Origin: an uncultured virus (IMG/VR IMGVR_UViG_3300037067_024288)
Lineage: Duplodnaviria > Heunggongvirae > Uroviricota > Caudoviricetes
Reading direction: 5' to 3' (one strand)
Virus record (IMG/VR): IMGVR_UViG_3300037067_024288
Length of the DNA: 64,000 nt
The notes below the pieces were generated by a model, which did no database searches, was not told the DNA's origin, and saw only the letters and a list, made by a program, of their open reading frames with translations. Shown here in pieces: positions 27,908-53,057 of this stretch; position 1 is the stretch's first letter; the number at the start of each line of letters is the position of its first letter. The translations under genes and the position numbers were made by a program.

Positions 27908-28642
27908 TTATTTCTTTGCAGAAAGGGCTTTATTTACTTTTGGATTTGCATAATTGCTAACCCCTGTTTTACCACGTAAAGTAGCAAACTGATTGATTTT
28001 ACTTGCAGGGAACATCCTAATTTTCAAGGTTGTACTTGCATACAAAGTTGCAATGGTAATGGTTGTCAGCGCATCAACATTAAACTTGTAGTAAATATCA
28101 GTCTGATTGCTACGGAACTGGTAAGAGTCATAGTCAGGGATGAAGCTCATTCCAACTGTATTACCGTTCGGATCCTTAGTTGCTATGGCAACAGAAGTCA
28201 ACACTTGCTGTTCAACAATAGACGATGTTACGTTTGAGGCGATCAAACGAAGTTGACCAACCTGGAAGATTTTTCCTGATACGATATTTGCCAAAAATTC
28301 CCCATACGTCATATTGGTAGGTTCATACCCAAATGTTACACCAGTGACTGCAAACCCAGAAATCAGGGCAAGACCAGCACCAAGGATAGACACGTTTGAA
28401 ATATCAGTCGTAGTTGTGTTAGCCAATACAATTGTGTAAGGCTGAGACTGACCTGAATTCATTTTTTTTGCAGGGGCAGGACCGGCAGCTTCAAGTTCAT
28501 CACCGAAGGCATAAGAATAATCATCGGCTCCTTGATCATCGGCAGATTCAAAATTATCCTCTGCATTTTCCCAAGCATCGGCACTCAGGTAATTTTGATT
28601 AATCGCGTCATTAGCATCAGCGAAATACTGTGATTTTTTCAT
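27908..28642 (-). CDS. Candidate major capsid protein (single jelly-roll-like) with acidic propeptide
   Basis: First large gene of the structural operon, beta-rich core, has a paralog, followed by terminator; no TM. Confidence 0.5.
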   Translation of the reverse strand: MKKSQYFADANDAINQNYLSADAWENAEDNFESADDQGADDYSYAFGDELEAAGPAPAKKMNSGQSQPYTIVLANTTTTDISNVSILGAGLALISGFAVTGVTFGYEPTNMTYGEFLANIVSGKIFQVGQLRLIASNVTSSIVEQQVLTSVAIATKDPNGNTVGMSFIPDYDSYQFRSNQTDIYYKFNVDALTTITIATLYASTTLKIRMFPASKINQFATLRGKTGVSNYANPKVNKALSAKK

Positions 28643-28875
28643 GTTTTTATAGTTTTTAAAAAGTTATTTATTAGGTTGAGGATTATCTTTTTTAACCATC
28701 TTTGCAAAAAGATAGTTTCCAACTACAACACCTGTCACAATTATTAAAAATGTGACTGAGTAACTTAGAATTTGTTTATAATCCAAACCATTTTTCACCT
28801 TTTATAATATTTGTGTTAAAAATAAATTAGTACTCGTCAAAAAATATCATGTATTAATCAAATTGTTTTCAATCT

Positions 28876-29400
28876 TTGAGTGATTTTTTTGTGAAAAAGT
28901 TTATTTTTATTAAAAAAATGAAAACAGAAATTGTTATTAATGCCTTGCATTACGCTACAAAATGCCTTGTGGATAAAATAAATGATTTAGAAATAGAAAA
29001 GAGAGTATGGATTAAACAAGGACATAAAGATGTTGTAAAAAAGATTAATTATGAGATAGACTCTTTAAAAAAAGTTACAATAATTCATTCGGAAATCGAA
29101 GCTGATTTTCATGCAGCACAAATATATTGCGCCTTCGGTTATTCCAGGGTAGTGGGCGAAGCGAAACCTTTATTGGTTAAATCTGTTTGTTCTACTTGCT
29201 CCAATTTTGAGAAGCCAGATTACCGTCCGAAACATACAAAAATAGGATATTGTAAAAAATTAAAGGACGATCATTTTAAATTTTGTAAATTGGATCATAA
29301 AAGTATGTTTGAAATTTTTACGCAAATTGATCTTGAAAATGATGATTTTGAAATAGAAGTTTCAGAAGATTTCGGTTGTGTTTTACACAATAAGGCTTAA
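28876..29400 (+). CDS. Chimeric hypothetical ORF containing 70 bp of the protease gene
   Basis: IHSEIEADFHAAQIYCA.GY.RV shared with 24274..25047; C-terminal CxxC/C..C..H. Confidence 0.55.
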   Translation: MSDFFVKKFIFIKKMKTEIVINALHYATKCLVDKINDLEIEKRVWIKQGHKDVVKKINYEIDSLKKVTIIHSEIEADFHAAQIYCAFGYSRVVGEAKPLLVKSVCSTCSNFEKPDYRPKHTKIGYCKKLKDDHFKFCKLDHKSMFEIFTQIDLENDDFEIEVSEDFGCVLHNKA

Positions 29401-29495
29401 CGGACGGATGTAGTCCCAGTTTGTGAAATAGGAATTAAATCACTATCAAAATACTAAAATGGAACAAGAAATTATAAACCAACAAAATACTAATA

Positions 29496-29768
29496 ATGAT
29501 GAAAATTGTAAAAATGTTCAAAAACCTACTGCAACAGGCATTACGTATGTTTGTTGTTCTATGCAGTTTTTTTAGCCGCATAGATAAAATTCAGTTATTA
29601 ACCTCAGAATGGTCAACCTGCAGAAAAACGTGGGGAATATCGCTTCTATCAATCGGAATGCAACTGCCTTGGAATGGCGTGTCAAATTACACGACAAAAA
29701 CATTCGCATGGATAAGCTATTATAATAAGTCGTGGCATTGCGGATTCTTGTTTTTTAAAATTGCATAG
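29496..29768 (+). CDS. Cassette hypothetical protein
   Basis: ORF ends at the cassette AAC boundary. Confidence 0.45.
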   Translation: MMKIVKMFKNLLQQALRMFVVLCSFFSRIDKIQLLTSEWSTCRKTWGISLLSIGMQLPWNGVSNYTTKTFAWISYYNKSWHCGFLFFKIA

Positions 29769-29879
29769 AACGGTGAGGCTTATAAGCTTGTCAGGTTCCG
29801 TTCGCTTCGCGAGAGATAAAATAAGTATATAACTTGCCTAATGGCTATACGCCTCTGAATTTTAAACGAATAACGAAAC

Positions 29880-30668
29880 ATGAATAACACGCTTACACAT
29901 CCTACGAGAACTGAACCGGAAATGCCGTATGACCGCTTGTTGGCAGCATGTACGGTATTTAATGCGCATTATTCTGATGTTATGTGTTTATTCCCTGATA
30001 AATATTTCGACTGGGCTGTTTGCGATATTCCTTATGGTATTGGAGTTGCTAAAATGGCTTATTTAAAGGAAACAAAAACAACTGTAAAGCAAAAAAATGG
30101 CAATAGAATAAACCCTAATCGAAATAAGAAGAAACATACTTTTAAAGATTGGGACAATGAAACGCCTCCACAAGCCTATTTTGATGAATTAAGACGCATA
30201 AGCAAAAACCAAATAATATTTGGGGCTGATTATACCGACTGGACAGGATTAGGCAAAGGGCGTATTAAATGGAATAAGGGATTTTCGGAAGGTGTAAGTT
30301 TTAACCAATTTGAATATGCTTACTGCAGTTGCATAGATGATGAAATTGAAATACCTCTTTTATGGGCTGGAATGATGCAGGCTAAAAGCCTAAGTGAACC
30401 TATGGTACAGCAAGGAAATAAAAAGCTAAATGAAAAAAGAATACACCCTTGCCATAAACCTGTGATGCTTTACGATGCCATTTTTAAAAGATTTGGCATA
30501 TATAAAATGAAAGTAATTGATACCCATTTAGGCTCTGGAAGCAGCCGAATTACTGCAGATAAATTTGAATGTGAATTTGTCGGTGCTGAAATTGATTCAG
30601 AATATTTTCAAGACCAAGAAAATAGATGGTTCAATTATAAACGAAACTTGAAACTGGCACTTTGGTAG
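29880..30668 (+). CDS. N4/N6 DNA methyltransferase (beta class), cassette-borne
   Basis: DIPY, HPCHKP, DTHLGSGS, GAEID. Confidence 0.9.
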   Translation: MNNTLTHPTRTEPEMPYDRLLAACTVFNAHYSDVMCLFPDKYFDWAVCDIPYGIGVAKMAYLKETKTTVKQKNGNRINPNRNKKKHTFKDWDNETPPQAYFDELRRISKNQIIFGADYTDWTGLGKGRIKWNKGFSEGVSFNQFEYAYCSCIDDEIEIPLLWAGMMQAKSLSEPMVQQGNKKLNEKRIHPCHKPVMLYDAIFKRFGIYKMKVIDTHLGSGSSRITADKFECEFVGAEIDSEYFQDQENRWFNYKRNLKLALW

Positions 30669-30722
30669 TATTGCTGCGGTTAAAGGAGTAGAATATTACC
30701 TGACTACTTCTCCCGCTTGTTG

Positions 30723-30848
30723 CTAACGGCGGCGGTAAGGTGTCGTGCCGTAATTAAACGAACAAAATTATCGAAATATGAATAACACTTATAAACAGCA
30801 GGAACTTTGGCAAAGCACTGAACAGGCATGCACTTTACCGCATGTTAG
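30723..30848. repeat. attC-like recombination hairpin
   Basis: ctaac-ggcg-gcggtaaggtgtcgtgcc ... ggcatgcactttaccgc-at-gttag. Confidence 0.8.
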
Positions 30849-31374
30849 TAACTGGTGCTTGCAGGACCTTTCGAGCGGGGCTAAATTATTGGCTTTATCT
30901 TGGAAAGAACCATTTGCTAGTTTAATGTTGTATGGTAAAATTGAAACAAGGGTTTGGCCTACTAAATATAGAGGGCTGGTACTTATCTGCACGTCAAAGA
31001 AAGCTTATAATCATGAGCAACTTTATAATATTTCTGGAAATTTAGTTAATGATTTTACCCGGAAAGTAATTGGTAGAAATTATGACCATTGGCAAAATAA
31101 TATAATCAAACAAGGTTACGCAATTGCGGTTGGAAGATTAGTTGATTGCAGACTTATGACTAAAGATGATGAAAGCAAGTGTTTTGTTAAATATAGAGAA
31201 CCTTGGAAAGAAGAAAGGATTAGTAAAAAAACTGGCAAAAAAAAGATAGTTGAAGTAAAACTATACTGTCATGTTTATGAGGACGTAAAGCCAATAAAGC
31301 CAATAATTTGGGACGGCAAACAAGGGTGGACTAATGTTTCACAAGATTTAATTCGAAGCATTGAACTTCGATAG
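30778..31374 (+). CDS. ASCH-domain protein, cassette-borne
   Basis: ALSWKEPFASL..GKIETR.W.TKYRG..LI. Confidence 0.85.
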   Translation: MNNTYKQQELWQSTEQACTLPHVSNWCLQDLSSGAKLLALSWKEPFASLMLYGKIETRVWPTKYRGLVLICTSKKAYNHEQLYNISGNLVNDFTRKVIGRNYDHWQNNIIKQGYAIAVGRLVDCRLMTKDDESKCFVKYREPWKEERISKKTGKKKIVEVKLYCHVYEDVKPIKPIIWDGKQGWTNVSQDLIRSIELR

Positions 31375-31383
31375 CACTTGTTG

Positions 31384-31508
31384 CTAACGTTGACGGTATG
31401 AGCTGAAACCGATTTGAAACACAACACTATCAACACGATATGAATTTGATTAGAACTACATACTTTCATTTACGCACCGAGACGGTTTTTGCTTATACCG
31501 TGTGTTGT
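31384..31508. repeat. attC-like recombination hairpin
   Basis: aac-gttg-acggtatgagctgaaaccg ... cggtttttgcttataccgt-gt-gtt. Confidence 0.8.
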
Positions 31509-31661
31509 GTGCATGTAGCTTCCACAAAATTACCTTCGAAGTACTGAACCTTTTTGTTTTATTTTTTAGGGAGGGTATTTTTTTCTTCTTTTTATATTAG
31601 GATATGTTATAAAATAATATTATTTTTACAGTGTTAAATTTTTAATTTAAAAACAAAAATT

Positions 31662-32021
31662 ATGGAAAACGAAAAATTAGAACAAGCAGTTCAAAATGAA
31701 GGAGCTTTTTTCGGCTCTTTAAAACGCAACAACAAACAGATACGGGATGACCGTGCGATTGCTATTGCCGAAGATACTCAGTTGGTTTACAAACGCAAAA
31801 TTGAGGATTTGGATTTGAGTATTAAAAAAATGAAACGGGAACAAGAAAATATGCTTGACCTTTCACCCACAAATGCCCAAAGCCTTATTCTTGCCAGTGA
31901 TTTTGATTCGGCAATATATACCGAAAAAGACATTGATTTGGGTGTAAAAATTCGTAACGCTGAAATTACACTGGAAATTGCCAAAAAGCGGTATGATTAT
32001 TTATTTGGAGGAATTGAATAA
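31662..32021 (+). CDS. Coiled-coil hypothetical protein, first gene of multi-gene cassette
   Basis: ORF translationally coupled to the VWA gene. Confidence 0.55.
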   Translation: MENEKLEQAVQNEGAFFGSLKRNNKQIRDDRAIAIAEDTQLVYKRKIEDLDLSIKKMKREQENMLDLSPTNAQSLILASDFDSAIYTEKDIDLGVKIRNAEITLEIAKKRYDYLFGGIE

Positions 32022-32875
32022 TGGGAGGCGGTAGTTATTCTTTTGTAAGCCGTTCGGCTAGAGAGGAAGATTTAGGATATAAAACTAAATCAACTCAGGA
32101 AATTTTCAAACAACGTTCCATTAATAATGCAATGAACCCTTCTGGAATTGTTGTAAGAGAATCGAGGGATTCTAAAGAACACCCAAATGTTGTTTCTATT
32201 ATTTTGGCTTTGGATGTTACCGGCTCTATGGGGACTATTCCACACTTTCTTGTAAAAGAAGGATTGCCTAATATTATGGCAAGTATTATTAATGGTGGAA
32301 TTAATGACCCGCAATTATTATTCCTTGCTATCGGAGACCACGAATGCGATAATTCGCCTTTACAGGTAGCTCAATTTGAAAGTAGTGATGAATTGCTTGA
32401 TAAATGGCTTACTGACGTATATTTAGAAGGTGGCGGAGGAGGTAATTCTGGTGAAAGTTATTTACTTGCTTGGTATTTTGCCGGATTTCATACTTCAATT
32501 GATTGCTTTGAAAAAAGAGGCCAAAAAGGATTTTTATTTACCATCGGTGATGAACCTACATTAAAAAGTGTACCCAAAAGAGCCTTACAAAACATTATGG
32601 GAGATGGGCAGTATGATGAGTTTTCGGCTGATATGCTTTTAGAAAAGGCAAGAGAAAAATACCATTGCTTCCATTTGCACATAAAACAAACAGGTGCAGG
32701 AAGTAGACAGGAAACTATGGATGGTTGGAAACAACTAATGGGTGAAGGGCTTATAATTGTTGATAATAAAAATGATGTTTCGAGAATTATTTCAGAAACT
32801 ATTATTAAAACTCAACCTTCAAAAGCCAAAACAAAAGAAGAAGTTATTAATGTTAAACCTAATATTATTTTGTAA
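32021..32875 (+). CDS. VWA-domain protein
   Basis: MIDAS DVTGS, EGGGGGN.GESY, IGDE. Confidence 0.85.
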   Translation: MGGGSYSFVSRSAREEDLGYKTKSTQEIFKQRSINNAMNPSGIVVRESRDSKEHPNVVSIILALDVTGSMGTIPHFLVKEGLPNIMASIINGGINDPQLLFLAIGDHECDNSPLQVAQFESSDELLDKWLTDVYLEGGGGGNSGESYLLAWYFAGFHTSIDCFEKRGQKGFLFTIGDEPTLKSVPKRALQNIMGDGQYDEFSADMLLEKAREKYHCFHLHIKQTGAGSRQETMDGWKQLMGEGLIIVDNKNDVSRIISETIIKTQPSKAKTKEEVINVKPNIIL

Positions 32876-32986
32876 AATGGGACAAATTGGTTATTCAGAA
32901 CCCGTATCTTTTGAAGATATGGAACAAAAACAAGAAGAAGCTACTAAAACAGTAGAAAGTACCGAACCTGAAAAAACAGAACAGGA

Positions 32987-34093
32987 ATGAACTCAAAGGC
33001 TGTAATAGGCTTAGGATTTGGGGACGAAGGGAAAGGTATAACAACTGATTACCTTTGTTCTCATTCTGAAAATCCATTAGTAATAAGATTTTCTGGTGGA
33101 CAACAAGCTGGACATACTGTTGTATTAGATGAAAAAAGGCATGTATTCTCAAATTTCGGCTCAGGAACATTGCGTGGAATTTCTTCATATTGGGCTAAAT
33201 ATTGTACGGTTGAGCCTATTGGTTTAACAAATGAATTAAATAGTTTGATAAAAAGAGGAATAAGCCCAACGTTATTTATTGACGAACGATGCCCGGTAAC
33301 TACCCCCTATGATATTTTTAGTAACCAGAAAACAGAAGAAAGCAACCAACACGGGAGCTGTGGGGTTGGAATAGGGACAACAATAAATAGAGAGGAAAAT
33401 TACTATTCATTACTTTTTGGGGATTTATTTTATCCTTCCGTTTTATCAATTAAACTAAATGCTATAAAACAATTTTATGGATTTAAAGAATCAATTGTTT
33501 TAGATAGATTTTACGAATGTGTTGAACAGATTTTAAATTGCAAAAACATAAAACCTACATATAACTTCCCTTCTGGATTTGATAATATTATATTTGAAGG
33601 TTCTCAGGGACTTTTATTAGACAAAAATATAGGATTTTTCCCAAATGTTACAAGGGCAAATACTGGAAGTAAAAATATTTTAGATGCTGGATTTAAACCT
33701 GAATTATTTTTAATTACAAGAGCTTACCAGACAAGACATGGTAACGGACAAATGACAAACGAAAGTATTCCGAACAATATATTTTTAGACGCAAACGAAA
33801 CTAATATTTACAATAAATATCAAGGCAATTTTAGACGTTCATTGCTTGATTTAGACCTTTTACTATATGGAATGAATAAGGACGAATATATTAGGAATAA
33901 TGAAAATAAAGCCTTAGTTATTACCTGCCTTGACCATGTATGTGATGAGCATAGATTTACTTATAAAGGAGAAATTATATATTGCTCAAATGAGAATGAA
34001 TTTATTGCAAAAATTGGGAGCATCCTGAAAATTAAAGACATTTACATAAGCAATACAAACGAATCAAAAAATATAATAAAATGGGAAAAGTAA
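32987..34093 (+). CDS. Adenylosuccinate synthetase-like protein
   Basis: GFGDEGKG, RFSGG.QAGHTV, FEGSQGLLLD, TRAYQTRHG.G. Confidence 0.88.
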   Translation: MNSKAVIGLGFGDEGKGITTDYLCSHSENPLVIRFSGGQQAGHTVVLDEKRHVFSNFGSGTLRGISSYWAKYCTVEPIGLTNELNSLIKRGISPTLFIDERCPVTTPYDIFSNQKTEESNQHGSCGVGIGTTINREENYYSLLFGDLFYPSVLSIKLNAIKQFYGFKESIVLDRFYECVEQILNCKNIKPTYNFPSGFDNIIFEGSQGLLLDKNIGFFPNVTRANTGSKNILDAGFKPELFLITRAYQTRHGNGQMTNESIPNNIFLDANETNIYNKYQGNFRRSLLDLDLLLYGMNKDEYIRNNENKALVITCLDHVCDEHRFTYKGEIIYCSNENEFIAKIGSILKIKDIYISNTNESKNIIKWEK

Positions 34094-34242
34094 ACAAAAG
34101 TATTACAATGGATGAAACAATAGCCAATGAGGGTGAAAAACAGGCAACGATTGAACGCCGTTCGTTTAGTTCGTTGATTGAATATTTACTGAACAATTAC
34201 TTAATGGCTTTGAAAAAGCCAAAGAGCGTGGGGAAAAAATAA
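34081..34242 (+). CDS. Small ribbon-helix-helix-like regulator (53 aa)
   Basis: Read directly: MGKVNKSITMDETIANEGEKQATIERRSFSSLIEYLL. Confidence 0.6.
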   Translation: MGKVNKSITMDETIANEGEKQATIERRSFSSLIEYLLNNYLMALKKPKSVGKK

Positions 34243-34295
34243 AAACAAAAAGACTTATTAAGCAGTAACCCTGCTACGAAGAAAGGCTATTGCAC

Positions 34296-34421
34296 ACAAC
34301 GTTGGTGGTATGGTTAGTTGCCGATTGCAGGCGACTTTCCTATCAAAATACACAGAATTACAAGCGGGTGGTAACGCTTCAAATTAGTACTAACACGGCA
34401 ATTAACTATACCACGGGTTAT
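34296..34421. repeat. attC-like recombination hairpin
   Basis: aac-gttg-gtggtatggttagttgccg ... cggcaattaactataccac-gg-gtt. Confidence 0.85.
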
Positions 34422-34440
34422 AGCCAGTATTTTATTTATC

Positions 34441-35028
34441 ATGGAAAATCAAGAAATAATATTTGAAGGCAAAAAGATAAAACCTACGAAAACAGGTATT
34501 TGGAGATGTCCGTTTGGTTGTCATACCGATAATAGATTTGCTGCACCAAAATGGAAGACTGAAAAAGGATTTATGAGGCATTTAGAAAACTGTTACATGA
34601 GACCTTCTGCTGTTGAAAAACGAAATAATGAAAAACAGCAAAAATATAACGAGCAAATTGAACGCAATAACATTCTGGAAAAATTAAAGGATTCATTTAT
34701 TGCAACATTGAAATATAAAATTGGTGATGAAATTTGCTATGTTAAAAAAATTGTTGTAAAAGATACGCATGAATGGCGAGGCAACAGAAGCGTAAAAGTA
34801 AGATATGAACCAGTGCTTAGATTTGATGCAGTTAAAACAAATGTTTCATCAATTAATTTTGAAGAACCTGATATTATTCCAACTATTGAAAACATGAACC
34901 GATTTGTTTATTTCAATAATGGAATAAAACTCTCTGACATTATGAAATATGAAGATGCTGTCAAAATTGCAAAAGAAAAAACAATAGCTGATGAACAATA
35001 CAGGCACGAAAGTTCGATGCTGCGTTAA
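34441..35028 (+). CDS. Cassette hypothetical protein with zinc-finger-like N-terminus
   Basis: CPFGC...H...C. Confidence 0.55.
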   Translation: MENQEIIFEGKKIKPTKTGIWRCPFGCHTDNRFAAPKWKTEKGFMRHLENCYMRPSAVEKRNNEKQQKYNEQIERNNILEKLKDSFIATLKYKIGDEICYVKKIVVKDTHEWRGNRSVKVRYEPVLRFDAVKTNVSSINFEEPDIIPTIENMNRFVYFNNGIKLSDIMKYEDAVKIAKEKTIADEQYRHESSMLR

Positions 35029-35093
35029 TATTGGCTATAACGGTTGAGTAAAGTCAAGCGCGATTATTTTATTGTAAATCAGATTATTGAGTT

Positions 35094-35903
35094 ATGAATA
35101 ACTTGAAGTATGTTTCTTTACTTAAAGATGAAATGTCTTTAAAAAATTATAGTAAAAATTCCATAAAGTCTTATTGTGGGTGCATATCTGTATTTTTTAA
35201 TTTTTTTGTAAAAAAAGACATGCCGGAACATATATCAGTTGAAGAAATTAAGAAATATTTACTTACAATTTCACCATCTTATCGGAAGCAAATGATTGGC
35301 AGTCTGTCAATATTTTATAAATTAATAGGACAACCTAAAAAATTTGATCACATAGAATATCCAAGAAAAGAGAATCATTTTCCAATTATTTTAAGTAAAG
35401 ATGAAATTAAAAAAATTCTTAAAAACACAGTTAATTTAAAGCATAAAATTATTTTATCAACAATTTATTTTCACGGATTACGAATATCTGAATTGATTAA
35501 TTTAAAAATAACAGATATAGATTTTAGTAGAAATCTTTTAATAATACAACAATCTAAAGGTAATAAAGACCGTGTAGTTCCAATAAATAAAGATTGGATT
35601 ATTGTTGTTAATAGATATATTTCTATTTATAAACCAATAGAATTTTTAATAAATGGACAGTTATCTCCACAATATTCGGCAACATCAATCAGAAATATTC
35701 TTAATAATAGTTGCAAAATTTCAGGAATAAATAAAAGTATTAAAATTCACTCATTAAGGCACTCTTATGCCACACACCTATTAGAACAAGGAGTTTCTCT
35801 TAGATATATTCAGAATTTACTTGGACACGAAAATAGCCGGACCACCGAACGTTATACACATGTCAGTAATATCCATTTACAAAATATCCAAATACAATTA
35901 TAA
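35094..35903 (+). CDS. Tyrosine recombinase (integron-integrase-like, no IntI insertion)
   Basis: SAM-like N-terminus; GLRISE, KGNKDR, HSLRH, LGH, TERYTH catalytic motifs. Confidence 0.92.
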   Translation: MNNLKYVSLLKDEMSLKNYSKNSIKSYCGCISVFFNFFVKKDMPEHISVEEIKKYLLTISPSYRKQMIGSLSIFYKLIGQPKKFDHIEYPRKENHFPIILSKDEIKKILKNTVNLKHKIILSTIYFHGLRISELINLKITDIDFSRNLLIIQQSKGNKDRVVPINKDWIIVVNRYISIYKPIEFLINGQLSPQYSATSIRNILNNSCKISGINKSIKIHSLRHSYATHLLEQGVSLRYIQNLLGHENSRTTERYTHVSNIHLQNIQIQL

Positions 35904-36592
35904 TGTCGCCATATAAAATATTAATAGCATCTCCAACTAGTAAACATAAAGATTATTGTTTTAAAGAATGGTCAGATCATTTAAAAGAACTGACTTATCC
36001 TGTTGATATTCTGATTGTAGATAATACAAACGATTCTGGACAATATGCCAAACAAGTACTTTCAAAACATTTTAAAACTATTCATGTTGATTGGAAACAA
36101 GACGATAATTTTTATTCTATAATCACAAAATCTCAAAATATTATTCGAAAGTACACCTTATATTATAAGTATGAATTCCTATTTTTATTAGAAAGCGACC
36201 AAATGCCTAATTATAATGTAATTGAATATTTATTGAGCTTAAATAAAAGAGTTTGTTCCCTTCCCTATTTTACTTATACAGCCTTTCAGTCAAAGGTTTT
36301 ACAGTTTGATACCGAAGATTTTAGTCAAATAAGAGAGGGTCATTGTATGAATTTAGACAAATCTTTCTTAAATTGGGACGGAATTACTAAACCAAAAATG
36401 CAATCAGGGTTAGGATGTATTCTAATTCATAGATCAATACTTGAAAAGATTAAATTCAGATGTGATGAAGATCATGCTTCCGATACTTACTTTCATGAGG
36501 ATCTTAATAAATTAGGAATTCAGTGTTATGTCTCAGAGCTTTATTTTTCAAAACATCAAAATAGTAATTGGTTCAAAATATTGAAAAAATGA
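35903..36592 (+). CDS. GT-A fold glycosyltransferase
   Basis: IVDN, LESD, GLGCILIHR, SDTYF. Confidence 0.75.
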   Translation: MSPYKILIASPTSKHKDYCFKEWSDHLKELTYPVDILIVDNTNDSGQYAKQVLSKHFKTIHVDWKQDDNFYSIITKSQNIIRKYTLYYKYEFLFLLESDQMPNYNVIEYLLSLNKRVCSLPYFTYTAFQSKVLQFDTEDFSQIREGHCMNLDKSFLNWDGITKPKMQSGLGCILIHRSILEKIKFRCDEDHASDTYFHEDLNKLGIQCYVSELYFSKHQNSNWFKILKK

Positions 36593-40551: not shown

Positions 40552-42750
40552 ATGGCTAAAAATTTAATTCGTAGAAATACCGGATATAAAGGAATGGCTA
40601 AATTAGGTAAATCAGGCGTGGTTAAATCGTTACCTATTACTCAATCATTTGAAAATATAAATATTAATAATAAATTTGTAGAACAAATAATAAATCAAGA
40701 TTATGACATTTCAGGAATTAGCAATAGTATCGAAGCAAGCTCTATCAAATCAGTTGCCAGTTTCATACAAAGAAGCTATTCAACAAGTAAAAGACTTGAA
40801 AATCCAGAGCAACAAAGGAATAAAGAAGCTAAAGAATTAAAAATATTTATTACCGAAAACAACTTATGGTTTGATGATTCAGTTCTTAAAAATTATCTGG
40901 ATGAAGGAGCTGAACAAAAAGTCTACTACATAGATAATAATGTAATTAAACTGAATGATGCCGGGTTCTATTCTAGTTGGGTTGATTATTTTGTGAGTTT
41001 ATTACTTCATAATTATTATTTTCCTCAAACAAAATATAAGATAGTTGGATTCTTAGAAAATGACAATAAATTATATTTGGTAGTAAAACAAAACTACGTT
41101 AAAAAAACAACTGAAACGGATTTATCAGAAGTTAAAGAATTTATGTCCGAAAACGGGTTTGTTAACACGAGAAATAATGATTACATAAATAAAGAAATAG
41201 GAATAATATTGGAAGATTTGCACGAAGAAAATGTACTAACAAAAGATGGTATTTTATATTTTATAGATACCGTTTTTTATTATAAAGAAAAATCATATTC
41301 AGATATGGAAATCAGTAATTTAGAATTAGCCAAAGGATCAGTCCACGAAGAAGAACATCGGGAAACCCTTGAAAAAGTCGCTTCTGGTGAAATCTCAGTT
41401 GATGAAGCTATTACACAGACCGCCAAAACTCATATTGTCGATGATCCTAACTATTATGAAAAATTGGAAGAAATGGAAAATAAAACATTAAAACTCTCTG
41501 ATATTCCTAATTCTGTTAAACAATTCATGCCGGAATTCCAACAGAAACTTATTATTGGCTCAGTTGAACATTGGGATATATTAAAAAGATTGGAGAGTAT
41601 TATTGATTCTATGCCAAAAGTTTACGGTACTGATAATATTAAATCTGAAGATAAGATTATTCAGCTTCATTATTTTTATGGTAGTTCCGATTGGTATATA
41701 GTAGAGAAAGATAGTGAAGTTGAACAATTACAAGCTTATGGATATGCTGTTTTAAATGGGGATTATGAAATGGCAGAATGGGGATATATTAATTTAGAAG
41801 AAATAAAATCTTCAGGTAAAATTGAACTTGACTTTTTCTGGGATCCCAAAAAATTTTCAGAATTGGAGTTTAATAAAACAGAAGAAAATCCTATTTCCAA
41901 AGAAGCGCAGATCATTATTAAACCTGAATTCAATAAAATGAAAGAATTCATTGAACAAACCGAAAAAGAGATTAAACCTGTATCTACATTGATCGGCCAA
42001 GATAAAATAAATTCTGAAATTCGCATACTTCTTAAATCAAAAGGACTCAACCGTTATCTTTATACTAAATCTGACTTTAATTTACTCTCTCAATATACTG
42101 GCGACAGCAAAACACAGGAAGAAAAATCAGATGGTTATCTTTGGGATTATTTCACCCCGGACGAAGCTGTTAAACTTTGTTGGCAATTAGCATATAAATA
42201 TGGATTCAGGGCAACAGAAAGTAAAAGAATTTGTGAACCCGCTTCAGGTTCCGGGAGATTCCTTCGCTATGCACCGGACTATTGTCAGGTTACGGCTTAT
42301 GAGATTGACGAAACATCTTATATGATTTGCAAACTCCTTTATCCTAATTTCAATATAATAAATAAAAGCTTTGAAAGTGCTTTTTATGTTGAATCCGGGC
42401 TTCGTGGGATAGCTTACAAACCAGTTTACGATACTTATAATCTGGTTATCGGCAATCCTCCATACATGTACCCTTATACCTCTGTTTATAAGGATAAAGA
42501 GAAAATAGTTTATCCTTTTATTCAAAGTTTAGAACAGCTCTTTATAATAAGGGGTGTTGATTCACTTGAAAAAAATGGACTGCTTATTTATATAATCCCC
42601 GCTTCGATAATTGATAATAATTCAAGTTATCAGGAGTTTAAAGATGCATTATTTAAAAAATGTGTAATGTTAGATGCCATTCGATTACCTTCGGGTACAT
42701 TTAAAGGTACTGATATTACGACCGATATAATTGTGGTTCAAAAACGCTAA
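40552..42750 (+). CDS. Polyvalent protein: kinase-like + DUF2958-like + N6-adenine MTase
   Basis: GAEQKVY/DLHEENV/FID; HYFYGSSDWYIVE..EWGYI..ELDFFW; YFTP, EPASGSG, NPPY. Confidence 0.75.
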   Translation: MAKNLIRRNTGYKGMAKLGKSGVVKSLPITQSFENININNKFVEQIINQDYDISGISNSIEASSIKSVASFIQRSYSTSKRLENPEQQRNKEAKELKIFITENNLWFDDSVLKNYLDEGAEQKVYYIDNNVIKLNDAGFYSSWVDYFVSLLLHNYYFPQTKYKIVGFLENDNKLYLVVKQNYVKKTTETDLSEVKEFMSENGFVNTRNNDYINKEIGIILEDLHEENVLTKDGILYFIDTVFYYKEKSYSDMEISNLELAKGSVHEEEHRETLEKVASGEISVDEAITQTAKTHIVDDPNYYEKLEEMENKTLKLSDIPNSVKQFMPEFQQKLIIGSVEHWDILKRLESIIDSMPKVYGTDNIKSEDKIIQLHYFYGSSDWYIVEKDSEVEQLQAYGYAVLNGDYEMAEWGYINLEEIKSSGKIELDFFWDPKKFSELEFNKTEENPISKEAQIIIKPEFNKMKEFIEQTEKEIKPVSTLIGQDKINSEIRILLKSKGLNRYLYTKSDFNLLSQYTGDSKTQEEKSDGYLWDYFTPDEAVKLCWQLAYKYGFRATESKRICEPASGSGRFLRYAPDYCQVTAYEIDETSYMICKLLYPNFNIINKSFESAFYVESGLRGIAYKPVYDTYNLVIGNPPYMYPYTSVYKDKEKIVYPFIQSLEQLFIIRGVDSLEKNGLLIYIIPASIIDNNSSYQEFKDALFKKCVMLDAIRLPSGTFKGTDITTDIIVVQKR

Positions 42751-42959
42751 TCATCATGGAAAATTTACTTAGAGAAAAAATCACAGAATTTCTGATCGGA
42801 TTAGATCGGGATGAATTCATTAACATTACCAATATGATGTCAAATGAAACAGGAAAACAACGTATTATTGATACTGTCATTGACAAAGTACTTAAAGATA
42901 AATTAAAAATTGAAGATGCAGTAACAGACATTGAATTATCACTTTATCAATAGCCAATT

Positions 42960-45900
42960 ATGGAAACGAAAACCGCTGCCTTAGAGAATATCTTATTGAT
43001 TGCCAAGAATAGTCGGGATATTGTTGATTTTTCAACAAAACTTTTCAAATACGCTCAAGAAAGCGAAGATTCTGAACTTTGGCAACAAATAATGTTCATA
43101 TACAAACAGTTGATGGAATATAACGTTAAGTTAGTTACCAATCCGTCACCAGGAGTTTATGATATTGTCGGAGGCGGGGATATTAAAGATTATTTACAAG
43201 ATATTGATAAGGCTTTATCTGGATCGGCTGGATTTTATACATCCAAACTGAATATGATGTTTCTTAGTTCAAATGCTGAAGATATTGAAATAACTGCTCT
43301 AAAATGGGATGGAATTGATGCTTACATGCTTAAACAAAATTTCATGTTAGCCTTTATTGCAATATATGCCCATGAAAGCATACATGCAATACTTAATAAT
43401 CAGAATATCCCAAATAATCCAGATATTTATGAAGTTAATGCTTTAAAAAACCTCATCTCAAAAGCTGCAAAAATTAATAACTTGGACTATTTAAAGATCA
43501 TTGATGCAAACTGGCAAGAAATGATTTGTCACATTGTTTCAGGTAAAAAGTATTACAACTACATTATTGACAATAACTTATCATTTGAACTTTCAAAAGT
43601 CATATCCAAAACAGTTCTTGATGAGACTATAAGAGTAACTTTAATCGGTTTTATTAATTCATGGACCAAGTTATTCTTTAATGTCACAACTGATATAGTT
43701 TACGATATACCAGATTATTCAAACAAGAAAAATTTCCTTTCAAGAAACTTCTTTTCTGATAACCCTCAAAAAATTTTGGGATCTGAAATTGAAACCACAA
43801 ATCGTTGGGGAAAATTTGTTTACAAAACAAAACGGTTTGAAAAAGATCATTCTATTGACGATATTTTAGGGCATGTTAAAGATTTGCCGGCAATTGACTT
43901 TAGTTCATTTGACAACCTCGCAAAAGTTGATCAATATGATACTTCTTTTGAGGTTGAGCAAGCCATTGAATCAATAACCCAATCCATTGAAAAGCAAAAA
44001 TTACAGCCAAAAGAAGATGTTACCAATGATCTTATTTCATTTGCCGATTCTGTAAGGATTTATAATACTGAAGGTGAGTTCGCTCATCTTACCTGGTTGG
44101 AAATCGAAGCTTACCTTTATTGTAACCCTGGCGAAAACAAACTTATTTGGCGGGAAAACCTTGAATATTCCGAAACCGATATACTTGGTTCAATGTCCAA
44201 AATCACGCTGAATAAGCAAATGGATAATGAATGTGAGATTGAAATCCCGACAGTAATATTCGATGGCGAAAATAATTACTTTGCTACATTTTTACATGGT
44301 GACGTTTATCAAAAAACCCAGAATATTAAGTCTAATAAGGATTTAATAATTGAGTCTAGGGGCGAAAATTATTATAATAAACTCATGGCCGGACTTGATA
44401 GTATCCGGTTTGTAAGTGTATCATTTGATAATGAAGAATTTTCAAAAAGGCCATTTGTAAGCCCTGTTTCAACAACATCTCAGGAGTTTTATATCAATTC
44501 ATTTGTTGGCGATAGCCGAAATAATAAAGGCGAAATAACATTAATAGAAGCATTTCTATATTGTATTGGCAGCCGTGAATCTGCATGGTATAAAGCAAGC
44601 CGTTACGGTGGAGTGATACCAAGTGATATTTATAAGGTAATGAGAGGACAGAGATTGATCGAACGCCCTCACCGGGGCAAAGATTTAACTGGTCCTGAAA
44701 AAGCAGCCAATGATGAAGCGGATAATCGCAATGCCATAAAATTTGACAATATATTTGAACAAACCTGTATTTGTTTCTCAGACTTCATCCGTGAATGTAT
44801 TGATGAAGAAAGCAAAAAAAGACTTGAAGAAGATATTTCCGGGTTCTATAATAAATTCTGCTTTACAGAACTTGAAAAAATACCAGTTGGGTTTACTCAT
44901 TCGAGTAGATTTAAGAGATCGAAATTCAGGCTTAAATCTATTCAGAGAAATAGTATTGCTTTTGTAAATATTAGTAAATCCGGTTTACTTGCACACGAGA
45001 TTGGTACAGGCAAGACAACTTCCTCATTATCAGCTATTTCCAACGCTTTTGATACAGGTAGGGCAAATAAAGCATTAGTAGTTGTTCCTACTACTGTTTA
45101 TGAAAAATGGATAAACGAATGTCAGAATCACACTGAAAAAATTATTGATTCAGTTACCGGAGAAGAAAAAGTTATCCAATTATATGGCATGTTACCTCAT
45201 CTTAACATAGTAGGATTGAGCAATTTGTCAAATAAGGTATTGATGGAATTAAAAGAATATTCCGGTGATGAAAAGAAACGGATTGAAAAAGCTAAATCCG
45301 GCTATTTTGAATTTTATGATAAACTTAAAAAAGCCATTAAAGATATTGACGTGACTGATGAAGAACCGGACGAAGATAACGAAGTTCTTGATGGTGTCGA
45401 AGAACAAAGGGAAGCCAAAAAGTCAACTCTTAAAATATTACTTCCGACAAACTATTCCGGTTCGATTGAATTTCTTAATAATATTTTGAAGCTTGTAGAT
45501 ATTGAGGTTTTAAGTGGGTTTGGGATTACCAATGCTGAGAATAAAAATTATAATGCCCTTTATTCTATACTCTCATCTCAATTTCAAAATAGCACATTAT
45601 CCTTTGTGATCAAGCAATTATATATTGAAGCTATTCCAAAGATTGAAAAAATCCGTTATTTTTATGAGATACCTGAATATGTTCATGTTTCGGTTATTTT
45701 ATCGTACATAGTTGATAATTACAAGAAACTTGAAAGCCATTTAATCGCTTCATTGGGTACATTCCGGGAATTCCCTGATAAGACTATATTCTTTACTTCT
45801 TATACAGGACTTGCCAGACTTGGATTTAAAGATGATACAATTCAATTAATGTCTCAAAGGCTTTTAGAAATACTGAAAGGTTCTGATTTAGAAGGTGCGG

Positions 45901-48900
45901 ACCAAGCTAAGATTGAAAAGAATATCGAAAGTTTACTTCTTAAATCTGAACTTGAAGCAAAAGTTTATTTTGAAGACTTAGGATTTGATTATATTGTGAT
46001 CGATGAAGCTCACAGATTGAAAAATCTTATTACCAGCATTACGGCCAAAGAGGGTACAAATGATCTTTACCCTGGCAACAAATCTCAGATCAAAACTATT
46101 AAAGGCGGATCTCAAAGTAAAGCTGCACTTACCGGATTTATGAGTACAATGTATATTCAGATGAAAAATGGAGGCCGGAATACCTTATTATTAACAGCTA
46201 CCCCATTTACAAATAGTCCTCTGGAAATTTACTCAATGCTTTGTTTGACAAGTTATAACTATCTTAAAAGCATGGGTTATGACGATGTTCTGAAATTCGC
46301 CCAGGATTTTATTAAAATCAAATCTCAATTATCAATCTCAGTTGAGGGTACTGTTAAGACAAAGATTGAACCGGTTGGTTATACTAACCTTCAGTTACTT
46401 CGTAGGATCATTTATACTATTATTGACTTTCGGTCTGCCGAAGAATCAAGTATTGTCAGACCATGTAAGATTGTACTTCCGATCCGGGAAAAATCTACTT
46501 TGTGTGATTCCAGAAAGTCACACGGTTTTAGCGTTATTCGCCCGGTTTCAACTATTGTTATTCCTACCAGACAGCAACAATTTATATTTGATGCACTTCA
46601 GGTTTACCTTTCAAGCCAACTGAATAATAAAACAGTTGACGATGTGTTTATGAAATATATTCTCAAAAAAGGCGAAGAATATTATAAGAGGGTTTCTTTT
46701 AGTGATTCAGGACTTGACTATAATGAGTACATGCAAAGTGTAGGTTCATTGGCTAATCTTATACAAGATAAATTCAATATCACAAGAACCGGTGAATATG
46801 TTGATAAATTATTCCCGGCAGTTGCCATATTGAAAACTCTTATGGCCATGAGAAATGTAAGTATAAGCCCATATATGTTCCGACCATACGTCACCGATTA
46901 TTTAGGAATAACAGATCAGGATATTGACCCTTATCAAGTAATCGAACAATCCTCAAAATTGATGTATGTTACTGCCTGTATTAAGAAGGTAAACTCTTTT
47001 CAAAAATCAGTCGGTAAAGATTTGAAAGGGATTGTTATTTACTCGAATTTAGGCACGCGACCAGGTAAGAATTCACCTGTTTCACTCCTTAAAATTCTTA
47101 AACAATATTTACTTGACGAGTCTAAAGGCTTCGGTTACAGCTCAAACAGTATTGAATATGAAGGTTTCCGTAAGAAATTCGATCAGGTAGAAATACTTGA
47201 CGGTACTACCGCTGCCGATCCTAAAAAGAAAAATGCTTTAATGAACCTATTTAATAAAGGTGAAATTAAAGTAATAATAACAACAATCCGGGAAGGGGTG
47301 GACCTCAATGGAGATACAATCGCTTTATTCAACCTTTCTGTTGACTGGAACCCTACCGATGCTAAACAGATTGAAGGCCGGGCATGGAGACAAGGGAATA
47401 AAAACGCATATTGCATGATGATTTACCCGCTTACTGCCAATGGTAGTGATATGGCCATTTATCAGAAATTACAAGATAAAACATATCGATTAAAAGCACT
47501 ATGGGATAAATCTTCAACTTTAAAAAGTGCGTTCGATCTGGATGAATTCGATCCTGAAGAATTAAAAATGCAAATGATTAGCAGGGTTGAAAAATTGGCT
47601 CCGTTCAAGTTTAATGAAGAAACAACGGCCAAAAGGTACGAATATGACATGCTCAAATCTAAAAAAACAGAGGACGAGCAAGTTATAAACAATTACAATA
47701 ATTTTCAGGCAAAAGAAATGCAGTTGCGATATGCAATGATGCTTTATTCGAGGCTTCCTAAGATACTGGAACGCGAAAATAAAATCCGCGAGATCCAGAA
47801 TAATATTGATAGTTCTGAACGGGCGGTAAAACAATATGAAAGGACTATTCAGGAAGAAAAATATAATATTTCGGAATATCAGGATTTACAAACACTCATT
47901 AATAACATAGCCAGCAAAACAACTGAGAAAAAAATGAAAGCTGGGGAATATGGAATAGCCCTTTCAGATGATCAAACAAGTGAGGCAGCTGCTTTGAAAA
48001 AAGAAATTGATTTATTAAATGTTGAGATTAAAAAGTTAGAAGCTGAAAAGCCAAAACTTGAAAAAGAAGTTGATAAAAAGGCTGCTGAATCCATTAAAGA
48101 GTTTGAAAAGGAACTTTCTAAAGAACAAAAAGAACTGGCCAAGCTTAAAAAGTCAATTGAAGGATATCAGACAGATCCTATTTTTATTAATGATACAAAA
48201 GAGTTAGAATTCAACCCAGATGATCAAGTCAGAGGTAATTATTTTATAAAATCTGAGACAGGGGGGGTAATCTATAAAGACAAAGGATTATCACTTGATA
48301 AAATCGATTGGTTGAAGGCTACTATTTATGATTTAATGGAAGGATTGACAAGGATTGTAGAAATGTACACCAATATTAATTCAATGTTTAGTGTGGCATT
48401 TTCCGAATATCGTAGTGAAACCATTGATTTAACTGATATAAATAATAGGTATTCAATACTTCCAATAGAATATTTTAATCAATTTGTCGATTATACCGGT
48501 GCTTATAATGGTGAAAGTATTTATGTCCGAACTATTTTAAATCTTGTCAGGGATTTTAATTCTCGTGGCTATACTAAAGAATACTGGAACTTATTCTATG
48601 CAGCACAATTAAAAGTATCTATTTTACGGTCACTTCGAGATTATGCTTCAATTCTTGAAGGTCAGGACCCGGATAAATATCTCAATGACTTGGATGAAAA
48701 GCTTAATTTACTTTACCAGGAAATCGGAGCAACTGAAAACATGCTCGAAATACCAGAATCAGTACTTGAAAAGTATATTGAGAAAGCTTACGAAGAAATT
48801 TCTAAAAGGCGTAAAGAATATTCAAGTTATATTAATTTAGTAGATGGTTTTGCCGGGTTCTCTGACTTATTCAATATAGAGCTTGAAAGTGTATTTATTA

Positions 48901-49118
48901 ACAATAATATCACAAAAGAACTGGCAGAAGAAGCCACTATTCAATTAACCGAAGAAGTGGTAAGCCAAAATGAAGCCAAAGAAATTATTCAGGCTTATTC
49001 TGATAAGATCGAAGTTTATCGTGAAATGGTCTTAGAAATAGAATCTGAAACCGATAAACAGGCTTTCCTTGATAAGATTGAAGTGTATGAGGAAATGATG
49101 CAAGAAATTCAAAAATAA
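42960..49118 (+). CDS. Large SNF2-family helicase (DarB-like) with N-terminal HEXXH zincin domain
   Basis: HESIH; HEIGTGKT, DEAH, TATP, EGVDL, QIEGRAWRQG. Confidence 0.85.
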   Translation: METKTAALENILLIAKNSRDIVDFSTKLFKYAQESEDSELWQQIMFIYKQLMEYNVKLVTNPSPGVYDIVGGGDIKDYLQDIDKALSGSAGFYTSKLNMMFLSSNAEDIEITALKWDGIDAYMLKQNFMLAFIAIYAHESIHAILNNQNIPNNPDIYEVNALKNLISKAAKINNLDYLKIIDANWQEMICHIVSGKKYYNYIIDNNLSFELSKVISKTVLDETIRVTLIGFINSWTKLFFNVTTDIVYDIPDYSNKKNFLSRNFFSDNPQKILGSEIETTNRWGKFVYKTKRFEKDHSIDDILGHVKDLPAIDFSSFDNLAKVDQYDTSFEVEQAIESITQSIEKQKLQPKEDVTNDLISFADSVRIYNTEGEFAHLTWLEIEAYLYCNPGENKLIWRENLEYSETDILGSMSKITLNKQMDNECEIEIPTVIFDGENNYFATFLHGDVYQKTQNIKSNKDLIIESRGENYYNKLMAGLDSIRFVSVSFDNEEFSKRPFVSPVSTTSQEFYINSFVGDSRNNKGEITLIEAFLYCIGSRESAWYKASRYGGVIPSDIYKVMRGQRLIERPHRGKDLTGPEKAANDEADNRNAIKFDNIFEQTCICFSDFIRECIDEESKKRLEEDISGFYNKFCFTELEKIPVGFTHSSRFKRSKFRLKSIQRNSIAFVNISKSGLLAHEIGTGKTTSSLSAISNAFDTGRANKALVVVPTTVYEKWINECQNHTEKIIDSVTGEEKVIQLYGMLPHLNIVGLSNLSNKVLMELKEYSGDEKKRIEKAKSGYFEFYDKLKKAIKDIDVTDEEPDEDNEVLDGVEEQREAKKSTLKILLPTNYSGSIEFLNNILKLVDIEVLSGFGITNAENKNYNALYSILSSQFQNSTLSFVIKQLYIEAIPKIEKIRYFYEIPEYVHVSVILSYIVDNYKKLESHLIASLGTFREFPDKTIFFTSYTGLARLGFKDDTIQLMSQRLLEILKGSDLEGADQAKIEKNIESLLLKSELEAKVYFEDLGFDYIVIDEAHRLKNLITSITAKEGTNDLYPGNKSQIKTIKGGSQSKAALTGFMSTMYIQMKNGGRNTLLLTATPFTNSPLEIYSMLCLTSYNYLKSMGYDDVLKFAQDFIKIKSQLSISVEGTVKTKIEPVGYTNLQLLRRIIYTIIDFRSAEESSIVRPCKIVLPIREKSTLCDSRKSHGFSVIRPVSTIVIPTRQQQFIFDALQVYLSSQLNNKTVDDVFMKYILKKGEEYYKRVSFSDSGLDYNEYMQSVGSLANLIQDKFNITRTGEYVDKLFPAVAILKTLMAMRNVSISPYMFRPYVTDYLGITDQDIDPYQVIEQSSKLMYVTACIKKVNSFQKSVGKDLKGIVIYSNLGTRPGKNSPVSLLKILKQYLLDESKGFGYSSNSIEYEGFRKKFDQVEILDGTTAADPKKKNALMNLFNKGEIKVIITTIREGVDLNGDTIALFNLSVDWNPTDAKQIEGRAWRQGNKNAYCMMIYPLTANGSDMAIYQKLQDKTYRLKALWDKSSTLKSAFDLDEFDPEELKMQMISRVEKLAPFKFNEETTAKRYEYDMLKSKKTEDEQVINNYNNFQAKEMQLRYAMMLYSRLPKILERENKIREIQNNIDSSERAVKQYERTIQEEKYNISEYQDLQTLINNIASKTTEKKMKAGEYGIALSDDQTSEAAALKKEIDLLNVEIKKLEAEKPKLEKEVDKKAAESIKEFEKELSKEQKELAKLKKSIEGYQTDPIFINDTKELEFNPDDQVRGNYFIKSETGGVIYKDKGLSLDKIDWLKATIYDLMEGLTRIVEMYTNINSMFSVAFSEYRSETIDLTDINNRYSILPIEYFNQFVDYTGAYNGESIYVRTILNLVRDFNSRGYTKEYWNLFYAAQLKVSILRSLRDYASILEGQDPDKYLNDLDEKLNLLYQEIGATENMLEIPESVLEKYIEKAYEEISKRRKEYSSYINLVDGFAGFSDLFNIELESVFINNNITKELAEEATIQLTEEVVSQNEAKEIIQAYSDKIEVYREMVLEIESETDKQAFLDKIEVYEEMMQEIQK

Positions 49119-52647: not shown

Positions 52648-52768
52648 TATCCATTGGTGTAATCTCTTTTGTATTGACTCTTTGGCCGCAACCAAAGAGG
52701 GGTTGAAATCCCGGAGAGAGTTGACAGCATACCGAAAGGAGGTCCCGGTTAAAGTCCGGGATGGGTTT
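52648..52768 (+). ncRNA. Unusual tRNA-like RNA with nested insertion and no anticodon loop
   Basis: Acceptor atccat/atgggt, T-arm cccgg-ttaaagt-ccggg, D-arm tggtgtaa..cagcat interrupted by a structured insert, cc-gaaa-gg in place of the anticodon arm. Confidence 0.45.
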
Positions 52769-52789
52769 TTAAAAGCTTTTTGAAGAAAT

Positions 52790-53053: not shown

Positions 53054-53057
53054 ACAT

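Follow-up and report, generated by a model that had tools for sequence, protein, structure and literature searches.

An integron-like cassette array beside a Xer-like tyrosine recombinase in an uncultured phage

The record IMGVR_UViG_3300037067_024288, from an uncultured virus of the class Caudoviricetes, carries a row of gene units whose two ends are complementary to each other, followed directly by the gene for a tyrosine recombinase of 269 amino acids (aa). An initial annotation, made from the sequence, had taken this row for an integron-like cassette array driven by a recombinase other than an integron integrase (IntI). The locus raises three questions: whether the units are cassettes at all, at which point such units are exchanged, and whether the neighboring recombinase could be the enzyme that moves them. 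We analyzed a stretch of 64,000 nucleotides (nt) of this record, referred to here as the window, with positions counted from its first letter and the given strand taken as the + strand. The region from 29399 to 35903 is an array of five cassettes, of which three are clear-cut, one has a short pair of arms that is anchored, and one is decayed. Sequence comparison suggests that this array belongs to a large integron-like system in phages of Bacteroidota-type bacteria. We consider it fairly probable that the full model holds, in which an integron-like cassette array is moved at the sequence TAAC by this recombinase via a folded coding strand.

Five cassettes with complementary ends

To score the complementarity of unit ends, we compared each 16-nt tail arm (ending AAC) with all 3964 positions in the 4 kilobases (kb) upstream. 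The best complement of the tail arm was the claimed head arm in five of five units, with the ten arm strings lying at 29556/29757, 29939/30718, 30844/31373, 31504/34291 and 34417/35027 (head/tail), just as the initial annotation had placed its five units. Units 1, 3 and 5 scored 14.5, 14.0 and 14.5 of 16, with runners-up at 12, 12 and 13.5 and a background mean of ~5 (standard deviation 1.7). Units 2 and 4 were marginal, at 11.5 vs 10.5 and 11 vs 10.5 for the respective runners-up. The head arm of unit 4 starts at the GTT of the spacer S3, which gives it an independent anchor; that of unit 2 has no anchor at any hairpin end. Read on the + strand, G.T pairs account for six of the seven arm mismatches in the array.

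The features of the array, all on the + strand, are as follows (S, spacer; bp, base pairs; ORF, open reading frame).

29399..29558, +, S0, weak head hairpin of cassette 1; basal duplex -13.3 kcal/mol, the background level
29556..29771, +, unit 1, 216-nt body with GTTC...GAAC arms; 15-bp arm pairing with a single G.T (position 11)
29769..29941, +, S1, degenerate head of cassette 2; internal 10-bp hairpin, no terminal stem
29939..30727, +, unit 2, N6/N4 DNA methyltransferase cargo (ORF 29880-30668); Pfam PF01555, PHROG 23224
30725..30846, +, S2, strong head hairpin of cassette 3; basal duplex -30.4 kcal/mol
30844..31388, +, unit 3, 198-aa ORF 30778-31374; PHROG 3193 (function unknown)
31386..31506, +, S3, strong head hairpin of cassette 4; basal duplex -27.9 kcal/mol
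31504..34300, +, unit 4, 2.8-kb multi-gene cassette; arms of 10 bp, all paired
31662-32021, 32021-32875 (PHROG 2971), 32987-34093 (PurA/PurZ-like adenylosuccinate synthetase) and 34081-34242, +, ORFs of unit 4
34298..34419, +, S4, the strongest of the head hairpins, with two conserved G.T in a 19-bp stem; basal duplex -32.4 kcal/mol
34417..35041, +, unit 5, 195-aa ORF 34441-35028, no family match; 15-bp arms, G.T at position 11
35038..35093, +, terminal TAAC and 52-nt recombinase leader; candidate docking site (attI analogue)
35094..35903, +, Xer-like tyrosine recombinase, 269 aa, intact; Pfam PF00589, PF13495

We next asked which of the spacers stand out as hairpins. AAC...GTT segments enclosing 45-230 nt, with inner ends forming a duplex, were collected from both strands of the window and from six shuffles. 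At a threshold of -13, the window held 26 candidates per strand and the shuffles 26-34. Only S2, S3 and S4 are far out in this 64-kb scan, and the next best + strand candidate reaches -17.9 kcal/mol. The initial annotation had the ends of every spacer folding into a stem; this is true of these three but not of S0, which lies at background, nor of S1, whose fold is internal and whose whole-spacer z value is +0.9. A stricter ungapped scan recovered S4 alone, and a generic inverted-repeat list was dominated by AT-rich noise. In a search of 28500-36500 at E values of up to 5, Rfam returned no family match and two chance-level matches only, and there is no tRNA within the array region. On the - strand, two lone AAC...GTT hairpins pass the scan, at 14395-14455 and 63031-63100 (-23.9 and -20.0 kcal/mol).

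Read from its foot, S2 consists of TAAC, a 4x2 internal loop and a long stem, and the ATG (30778) of the 198-aa ORF sits in its loop. The ATG of the methyltransferase gene (29880) likewise lies inside S1. A start context of ..TATGAATAAC is common to S1, S2 and the recombinase leader; the leader aligns with the 5' part of S2, with the GTTA end absent. The first spacer, S0, starts with an AAC, and the upstream ORF 28876-29400 has its stop codon overlapping this AAC.

The arms differ in quality from unit to unit. In unit 3, 15 of 16 positions are paired, with a T.T at position 10, a G.T at position 11 and one further wobble. Unit 2, with 10 nt paired including two G.T, is the weakest of the five. 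Two of the units have counterparts elsewhere: another phage contig (L038, 2671-2904) has a unit as long as unit 1, with 80% identity to it over 235 nt, and the arm type of unit 5 recurs around unrelated ORFs in other contigs.

Exchange of whole units at TAAC and a widespread hairpin family

Four related viral contigs (L003, L016, L019 and L020) share blocks of 99.8-100% identity that end on the TAAC at the 5' foot of a hairpin. In the comparison of L003 with L016, the identity is 99.8% over 2116 nt, and the match ends at TAAC on both sides with different sequence beyond. At the right-hand end, the hairpins that follow the shared TAAC are of different types. For a census, we then compared 68 low-GC viral loci with one another and counted where alignments of at least 95% identity end internally, which gave 16 such ends. 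Ten of them fall at a TAAC| boundary (chance expectation, 0.3% per end), a count that includes two ends scored as GTT before the strand of the element was corrected. Two others lie near elements. Whole units therefore differ between related contigs, and this part of the initial annotation's proposal of an integron-like shuffling system stands; the break, however, is at TAAC| and not at the G|TT that an integron would use.

Since these breaks fall at the TAAC in front of a hairpin, the mobile unit starts with the hairpin. As judged from these alignments, it consists of the hairpin, an arm beginning with GTTA, the cargo, and a second arm ending in TAAC. With the hairpin at the head of the unit, the ORFs at 29880 and 30778 would hence start inside the preceding spacer, as they do.

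Assembled (Logan) contigs of three metagenome runs were also aligned to the window. Depth is up ~10-fold at S3 and up to 40-fold at S4, and the metagenome contigs listed end at or within these two hairpins. The positions 31385, 34297/8 and 34300/1 are the exact points at which non-matching flanks set in, as seen in two or three runs that belong to different studies. For contigs with a different upstream sequence, the match to the window starts at 31385, which is the T of the TAAC at the front of S3, and contigs that match through 34300/34301 continue into other sequence. The joints listed have sides of only 18-65 nt, at a likeness threshold of 85, and their probable source is repeats or other organisms.

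The initial annotation had described the spacers as unrelated in sequence and conserved in structure only. This view has to be given up, since the window spacers have the common pattern TAACG...GGTAT...ATACC...GTTA, and at least 16 other phage contigs have copies of S4 that match it at ~90% identity with the loop counted in. One element, in a 462-kb uncultured phage, is 88% identical to S4 and is flanked by ORFs unrelated to those of the window. An exact 17-mer of S4 occurs at 25 viral-contig loci, of which 3 are GC-rich chance matches. When 16 copies of S4 are aligned, conservation covers the 19-bp stem with its two G.T pairs as well as most of the loop, while the sequence 5' of TAAC differs in each copy and the sequence 3' of GTTA falls into about six classes.

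Hairpins of the same family are clustered on one strand in many uncultured phage contigs. High-GC loci gave many false hairpin calls on both strands, and loci with a GC content of at least 0.42 (phage) or at least 0.48 (bacterial) were excluded. The remaining low-GC loci yielded a set of 130 distinct strong elements. These share a T before AAC (88%), a G after AAC (94%) and an A after GTT (92%). Position 11 of the head arm is G in 74% and is opposite a T in the tail arm in 91%. Two lengths predominate, with 27 elements of 80-89 nt and 92 of 110-129 nt. Each of the three metagenome runs has contigs in which 34320 is joined to 34399, which makes a short-loop S4 with the same stem and matches the 80-89-nt class.

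Complementarity of a unit's own ends extends to this wider set. In 41 pairs of consecutive elements, own-end pairing had a mean of 13.0 of 18, as compared with 10.5 (standard deviation 2.0) for non-cognate arm pairs and 10.9 for the two flanks of a single hairpin. Several of the cognate values are low because weaker elements were missed between two strong ones. The usual arm pattern is ten pairs, one G.T and four more pairs.

A Xer-like recombinase downstream of the hairpins

The last TAAC of the array lies 52 nt before the ATG of the recombinase gene, in agreement with the initial annotation, which had the array ending just upstream of an intact recombinase of 269 aa. The protein has a Phage_integrase domain (PF00589, at 1e-38) and a SAM-like domain (PF13495) and falls within the tyrosine recombinase superfamily, whose catalytic domain carries the residues R..K..H-x-x-R..H..Y. 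In an alignment of 20 homologues, H219, R222, H245 and Y254 are invariant and R130 is nearly so; we take these five to be the catalytic residues. The best NCBIfam model is the XerA-type NF040815 (193.9 bits vs a cut-off of 220), followed by the integron integrase model TIGR02249 (163.5 bits, in two stretches, vs 265) and the Xer models TIGR02225 (163.2 vs 329.6) and TIGR02224 (147.8 vs 335.15), so that every curated cut-off is above the score of this recombinase. It aligns end to end with the archaeal Xer structures 4a8e and 5hxy. Against the integron integrase VchIntIA (2a3v), the match is split, and query residues 173-195 (23 aa) stand opposite chain residues 178-243 (66 aa). Because 23 residues face 66, the IntI insertion is absent, and together with the TIGR02249 score below cut-off this bears out the earlier view of a non-IntI enzyme.

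Homologues at ~45% identity number in the thousands, mostly in Bacteroidota, and are currently annotated as XerD or "integron integrase." Those in viral contigs were found via alignment, a single-protein scan having found no close relatives. Of the phage loci, 80 were examined, and we kept those in which the GC content was below 0.42, the homologue was at least 36% identical and the upstream sequence ran to 2500 nt or more. Strong elements on the same strand as the recombinase gene lie within 2500 nt upstream of it in 19 of 23 phage loci, for a total of 47 elements with none on the opposite strand. Downstream of phage recombinases, a same-strand element was found in 3 of 32 cases and an opposite-strand element in 1 of 32. 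Among homologues with less than 36% identity, upstream elements occur in one of eight. The arrangement seen in the window, with the recombinase co-directional with and downstream of the cassettes, is thus shared by most of these phage loci, and homologous recombinases are associated with such spacers, both as the initial annotation would have it.

The distance from the last TAAC (CAAC in one case) to the ATG of the recombinase gene is ~35-60 nt in 14 of 21 loci and larger in two more. Most of these loci have a conserved TA[CT]TATAT motif after the last TAAC. The window has its TAAC at a similar distance, 52 nt, but its leader differs from the TA[CT]TATAT type.

Bacteroidota chromosomes show a different layout. 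There, elements lie 0.8-2.9 kb downstream of the recombinase gene on the opposite strand, in 9 of 19 loci (e.g., L122, L126, L130, L134 and L139). Other metagenome relatives of the window (L204-L212) are at most 45% identical; only L204 among them has hairpins below -24 kcal/mol, and these are downstream on the opposite strand, like those of the bacterial chromosomes. As far as sequence can tell, the window recombinase may be the driver of its array, the tie between the two being a correlation only.

Proposed mechanism, rival explanations, and known systems

In this system, a cassette begins with a hairpin of ~85 or ~120 nt, located right after a conserved TAAC, with a 10-20-bp stem and a loop, and ending in GTTA. 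This head is followed by an arm of 10-15 nt that starts from the GTTA, a cargo of one to several ORFs (sometimes starting in the loop), and a complementary tail arm ending in TAAC. In the proposed model, the recombinase would cut and rejoin at TAAC|, and recombination of the front TAAC with the TAAC at the cassette's own end would release a circle. In this circle, tail arm, TAAC, hairpin, GTTA and head arm would be adjacent and could fold into one long imperfect coding-strand hairpin, made up of an arm duplex with its conserved G.T, a small asymmetric internal loop, and the hairpin stem. The folded layout would imitate a core site with two arms, in the manner of folded attC. The circle might then re-enter at any TAAC site, probably mostly at the one 52 nt before the recombinase gene. 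We infer the folded single-stranded substrate, the circular intermediate, catalysis by this enzyme and the preference for proximal entry.

Folding predictions are consistent with such a junction. With its own tail arm, each predicted circle junction forms one continuous imperfect hairpin, which gains 4.7-10 kcal/mol over the in-array site in four of five cassettes; for the decayed cassette 2 the gain is only 0.8 kcal/mol. The S0 site, for example, folds at -18.4 when reconstituted with its own tail arm vs -12.9 in the array. As to the strand, the top strand is the more stable one in 121 of the 130 elements, and it has 231 G.T pairs vs 27 for the bottom strand. Independent support for this assignment comes from the elements upstream of recombinases, all 47 of which are on the strand of the gene. 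The wobbles also have a polarity: in 212 of 231 stem G.T pairs, the G is on the 5' arm and the T on the 3' arm, and the long-range arms are the same at position 11.

Several observations weigh against the model. In the census, all ten TAAC ends come from one four-contig cluster and represent three distinct events, and 4 of the 16 ends are far from any element. At the window locus itself, we found no cassette variation: the metagenome contig L203 shows the same order at 99.7% identity across 5064 nt, and contigs of a second study (X2) match units 1-3 and unit 4 unchanged, in a comparison in which the contigs listed do not bridge S3 and L203 alone bridges S4. The contigs of X1, from which the window DNA may itself derive, agree with the window wherever they cover it. 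An unchanged gene order in related genomes is part of what the initial annotation had named as counting against mobility; differences by whole units at TAAC were seen in other contigs. The S4 hairpin precedes at least six arm classes as well as unrelated ORFs, which a single TAAC| crossover does not by itself explain. The strand preference is partly circular, the strands of the elements having been assigned by energy, and the G.T bias fits RNA structure equally well. Finally, the recombinase is without the segment by which IntI reads folded attC.

The most serious of the alternatives accepts the cassettes as real and has them moved at TAAC by another enzyme, be it one that the host encodes (as with attC clusters lacking an integrase) or one still to be recognized, while the neighboring recombinase has some other use for the phage, such as integration or dimer resolution, and merely tends to lie next to arrays. 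Here, the array-bearing phages themselves speak against our model: PF00589 was found in none of five such records (end repeats or CheckV mark three as complete; the control gave 14 of 14 genomes), and the window recombinase was matched in none of the five. Arrays therefore need no phage-encoded tyrosine recombinase. The thousands of homologues at ~45% identity in Bacteroidota, with hairpins beside them in 9 of 19 loci, mean that hosts could therefore supply the enzyme in trans. What this explanation leaves hard to understand without a functional link is the polar arrangement in the phages, with hairpins upstream in 19 of 23 loci, none opposite, and TAAC ~35-60 nt before the ATG in 14 of 21; the leader of the window recombinase, moreover, is itself hairpin-like. 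We regard a different enzyme as rather unlikely.

Somewhat less likely again is that hairpins and arm pairs are RNA structures of a polycistronic transcript, with a role in processing, stability or translation, and that other recombination exchanges the units incidentally. On the coding strand, almost every mismatch is compatible with G.U pairing, the elements are always oriented with the genes, start codons lie inside hairpin loops, and the loop sequence of S4 is conserved, all as an RNA would have it. RNA structure would not, however, place the breaks exactly at TAAC even where the flanking hairpins differ, nor would it tie the elements to a DNA recombinase and a conserved docking motif. The Rfam search at E up to 5 gave no match in the array region, and a pairing across 2.8 kb, as in unit 4, is unusual for mRNA.

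Homologous recombination at hairpin repeats has been proposed for the promoter-stem-loop repeats of T4-type phages. Shuffling of the present units by such recombination between repeated hairpins, or by an HUH (IS200/IS605-type) single-strand transposase, is very improbable: the hairpins are indeed repeated, some at ~90% identity across genomes, and one array-bearing record has a Y1 transposase, but the right-hand L003/L016 break has unlike hairpins after TAAC and so no homology there, and own-end complementarity with its conserved G.T is unexplained by homologous exchange. The Y1 transposase in question is of the IS200 type and lies at 60433-60795 of a complete 72-kb phage record (G009, also L202), 7 kb from the hairpin array. 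As a candidate for the enzyme, a Y1/HUH transposase (PF01797) was rejected, being absent from four of the five array-bearing records and from the window ORFs scanned.

The model of TAAC exchange by the Xer-like recombinase invites comparison with integrons, the textbook case of recombination on folded single-stranded DNA, in which an extra helix of the integrase is held to enable the reaction. The likeness lies in rows of mostly promoter-poor gene units in one orientation, in imperfect hairpin sites with outer boxes ending ..AAC and beginning GTT.., in complementary unit ends, as expected of an integrated circle, and in a candidate docking site that adjoins the gene of an Xer/IntI-group tyrosine recombinase, with arrays that occur without a recombinase as well. 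The site length of ~120 nt resembles that of Vibrio repeats, and sedentary chromosomal integrons have homogeneous attC sites of about this length. The attC core boxes have the consensus RYYYAAC/GTTRRRY. The boxes of the present elements are TAAC and GTTA, and the elements also have a stem and an internal loop. Integrons fold the bottom strand, which is marked by extrahelical bases. Their intI gene is upstream and usually divergent, with attI and a promoter reading into the cassettes, and a group with an inverted integrase exists.

The differences from integrons are as numerous. Whereas integrons have a G|TT crossover and carry attC at the 3' end of the cassette, the break here is at the TAAC that precedes the hairpin, and the site heads the cassette. 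Own ends pair over 10-15 bp with a conserved G.T rather than over a 7-bp box. The coding strand, and not the bottom strand, appears to fold better, with strands assigned by energy. The recombinase is downstream of the array and co-directional with it, has no IntI insertion, and scores below the IntI cut-off. The system is integron-like in its working, yet on several counts it falls outside the integrons.

Parts of this system have come into view before. The accessible portion of Qi et al. 2023 (PMC9892861) gives the crossover form G|TTRRRY and states that the substrate of its assay is the bottom strand. It describes integrase-less attC clusters (CALINs) in virulent phages, including Polaribacter phage P12002L with methyltransferase cargo, and its attC1 primer shows the TAAC-stem-GTTA layout of the present family. 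In our scan, P12002L has about ten weak to moderate elements of the present kind, on the gene strand and beside methyltransferase genes. A further point against our model is that P12002L_attC1, the one site of this type with a published test, is, in the same portion of that paper, the only site of six without a verified IntI1 junction. The sites are treated there as ordinary classical-integron attC, and no dedicated recombinase is named; within that text, "Xer" has 0 occurrences, and no TAAC breakpoint or head-attached sites are described. CALINs are defined by at least two sites that the attC model recognizes and by having no integrase nearby; in the window, a recombinase lies 52 nt from the array.

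The catalytic-domain insertion specific to IntI is needed to read folded attC (MacDonald et al. 2006, cited in PMC8138268). In the accessible part of Smyshlyaev et al. 2021 (PMC8138268), an "integron-like" subgroup of simple tyrosine recombinases is noted to lack full conservation of this insertion; insertion-less IntI relatives have therefore already been seen as sequences, and that part describes no sites, arrays or function for them. A search of the full-text literature turned up no account of a Xer-type cassette system from phages or Bacteroidota, the only glimpse being that of Qi et al. 2023.

The recombinase is also close to the Xer proteins (XerA, XerC/D), with XerA-type best family and structure matches and a short two-domain build that has no extra arm-binding domain. 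Unlike these, it is below every curated cut-off and is encoded at the end of phage hairpin arrays, not for chromosome dimer resolution. Nor, in contrast to Xer at dif, did we identify a dif-like duplex site here. We see about even chances for the broader proposal that phages of Bacteroidota-type hosts, together with those hosts, run a second integron-type system, independently evolved or ancestral, with an insertion-less Xer-type enzyme, coding-strand hairpins at the cassette head, and a TAAC crossover.

If this were true, the IntI insertion would not be required for recombining folded DNA, and the view of how integrons arose from Xer recombinases would change. The system would also offer a simple new pair of enzyme and site. 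It would explain how phages exchange counter-defence genes, methyltransferases among them, in the form of ready-made units, and would make viral accessory genes (methyltransferases, nucleotide metabolism, anti-defence) a pool of freely exchangeable cassettes. For annotation, it bears on recombinases now labelled XerD or "integron integrase" and on hairpins that break metagenome assemblies.

Within unit 4, the ORF at 32987-34093 matches PF00709 at 5e-43 and PHROG 1211, which bears an aminoadenine pathway name, at 1e-52; on the NCBIfam PurZ model, it scores 34 bits vs a cut-off of 300. The last ~100 nt of the unit (34203-34300) are highly repeated in metagenomes and are 86% identical to a stretch in another contig (L022). 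Within them, an inner ..GCAGTAAC may be the remnant of another cassette end.

The viral carrier proposed in the initial annotation is supported by the gene context of the window, which includes endolysins, an HNH endonuclease, RusA, a polyvalent DarB-like protein and tmRNA. The tmRNA gene (tag peptide ending in ...LRIAA) overlaps a tRNA-Met gene at 52761-53131. Two adjacent giant ORFs (732 and 2052 aa), at 40552-49118, form a polyvalent DarB-like protein with kinase, N6-methylase and helicase parts.

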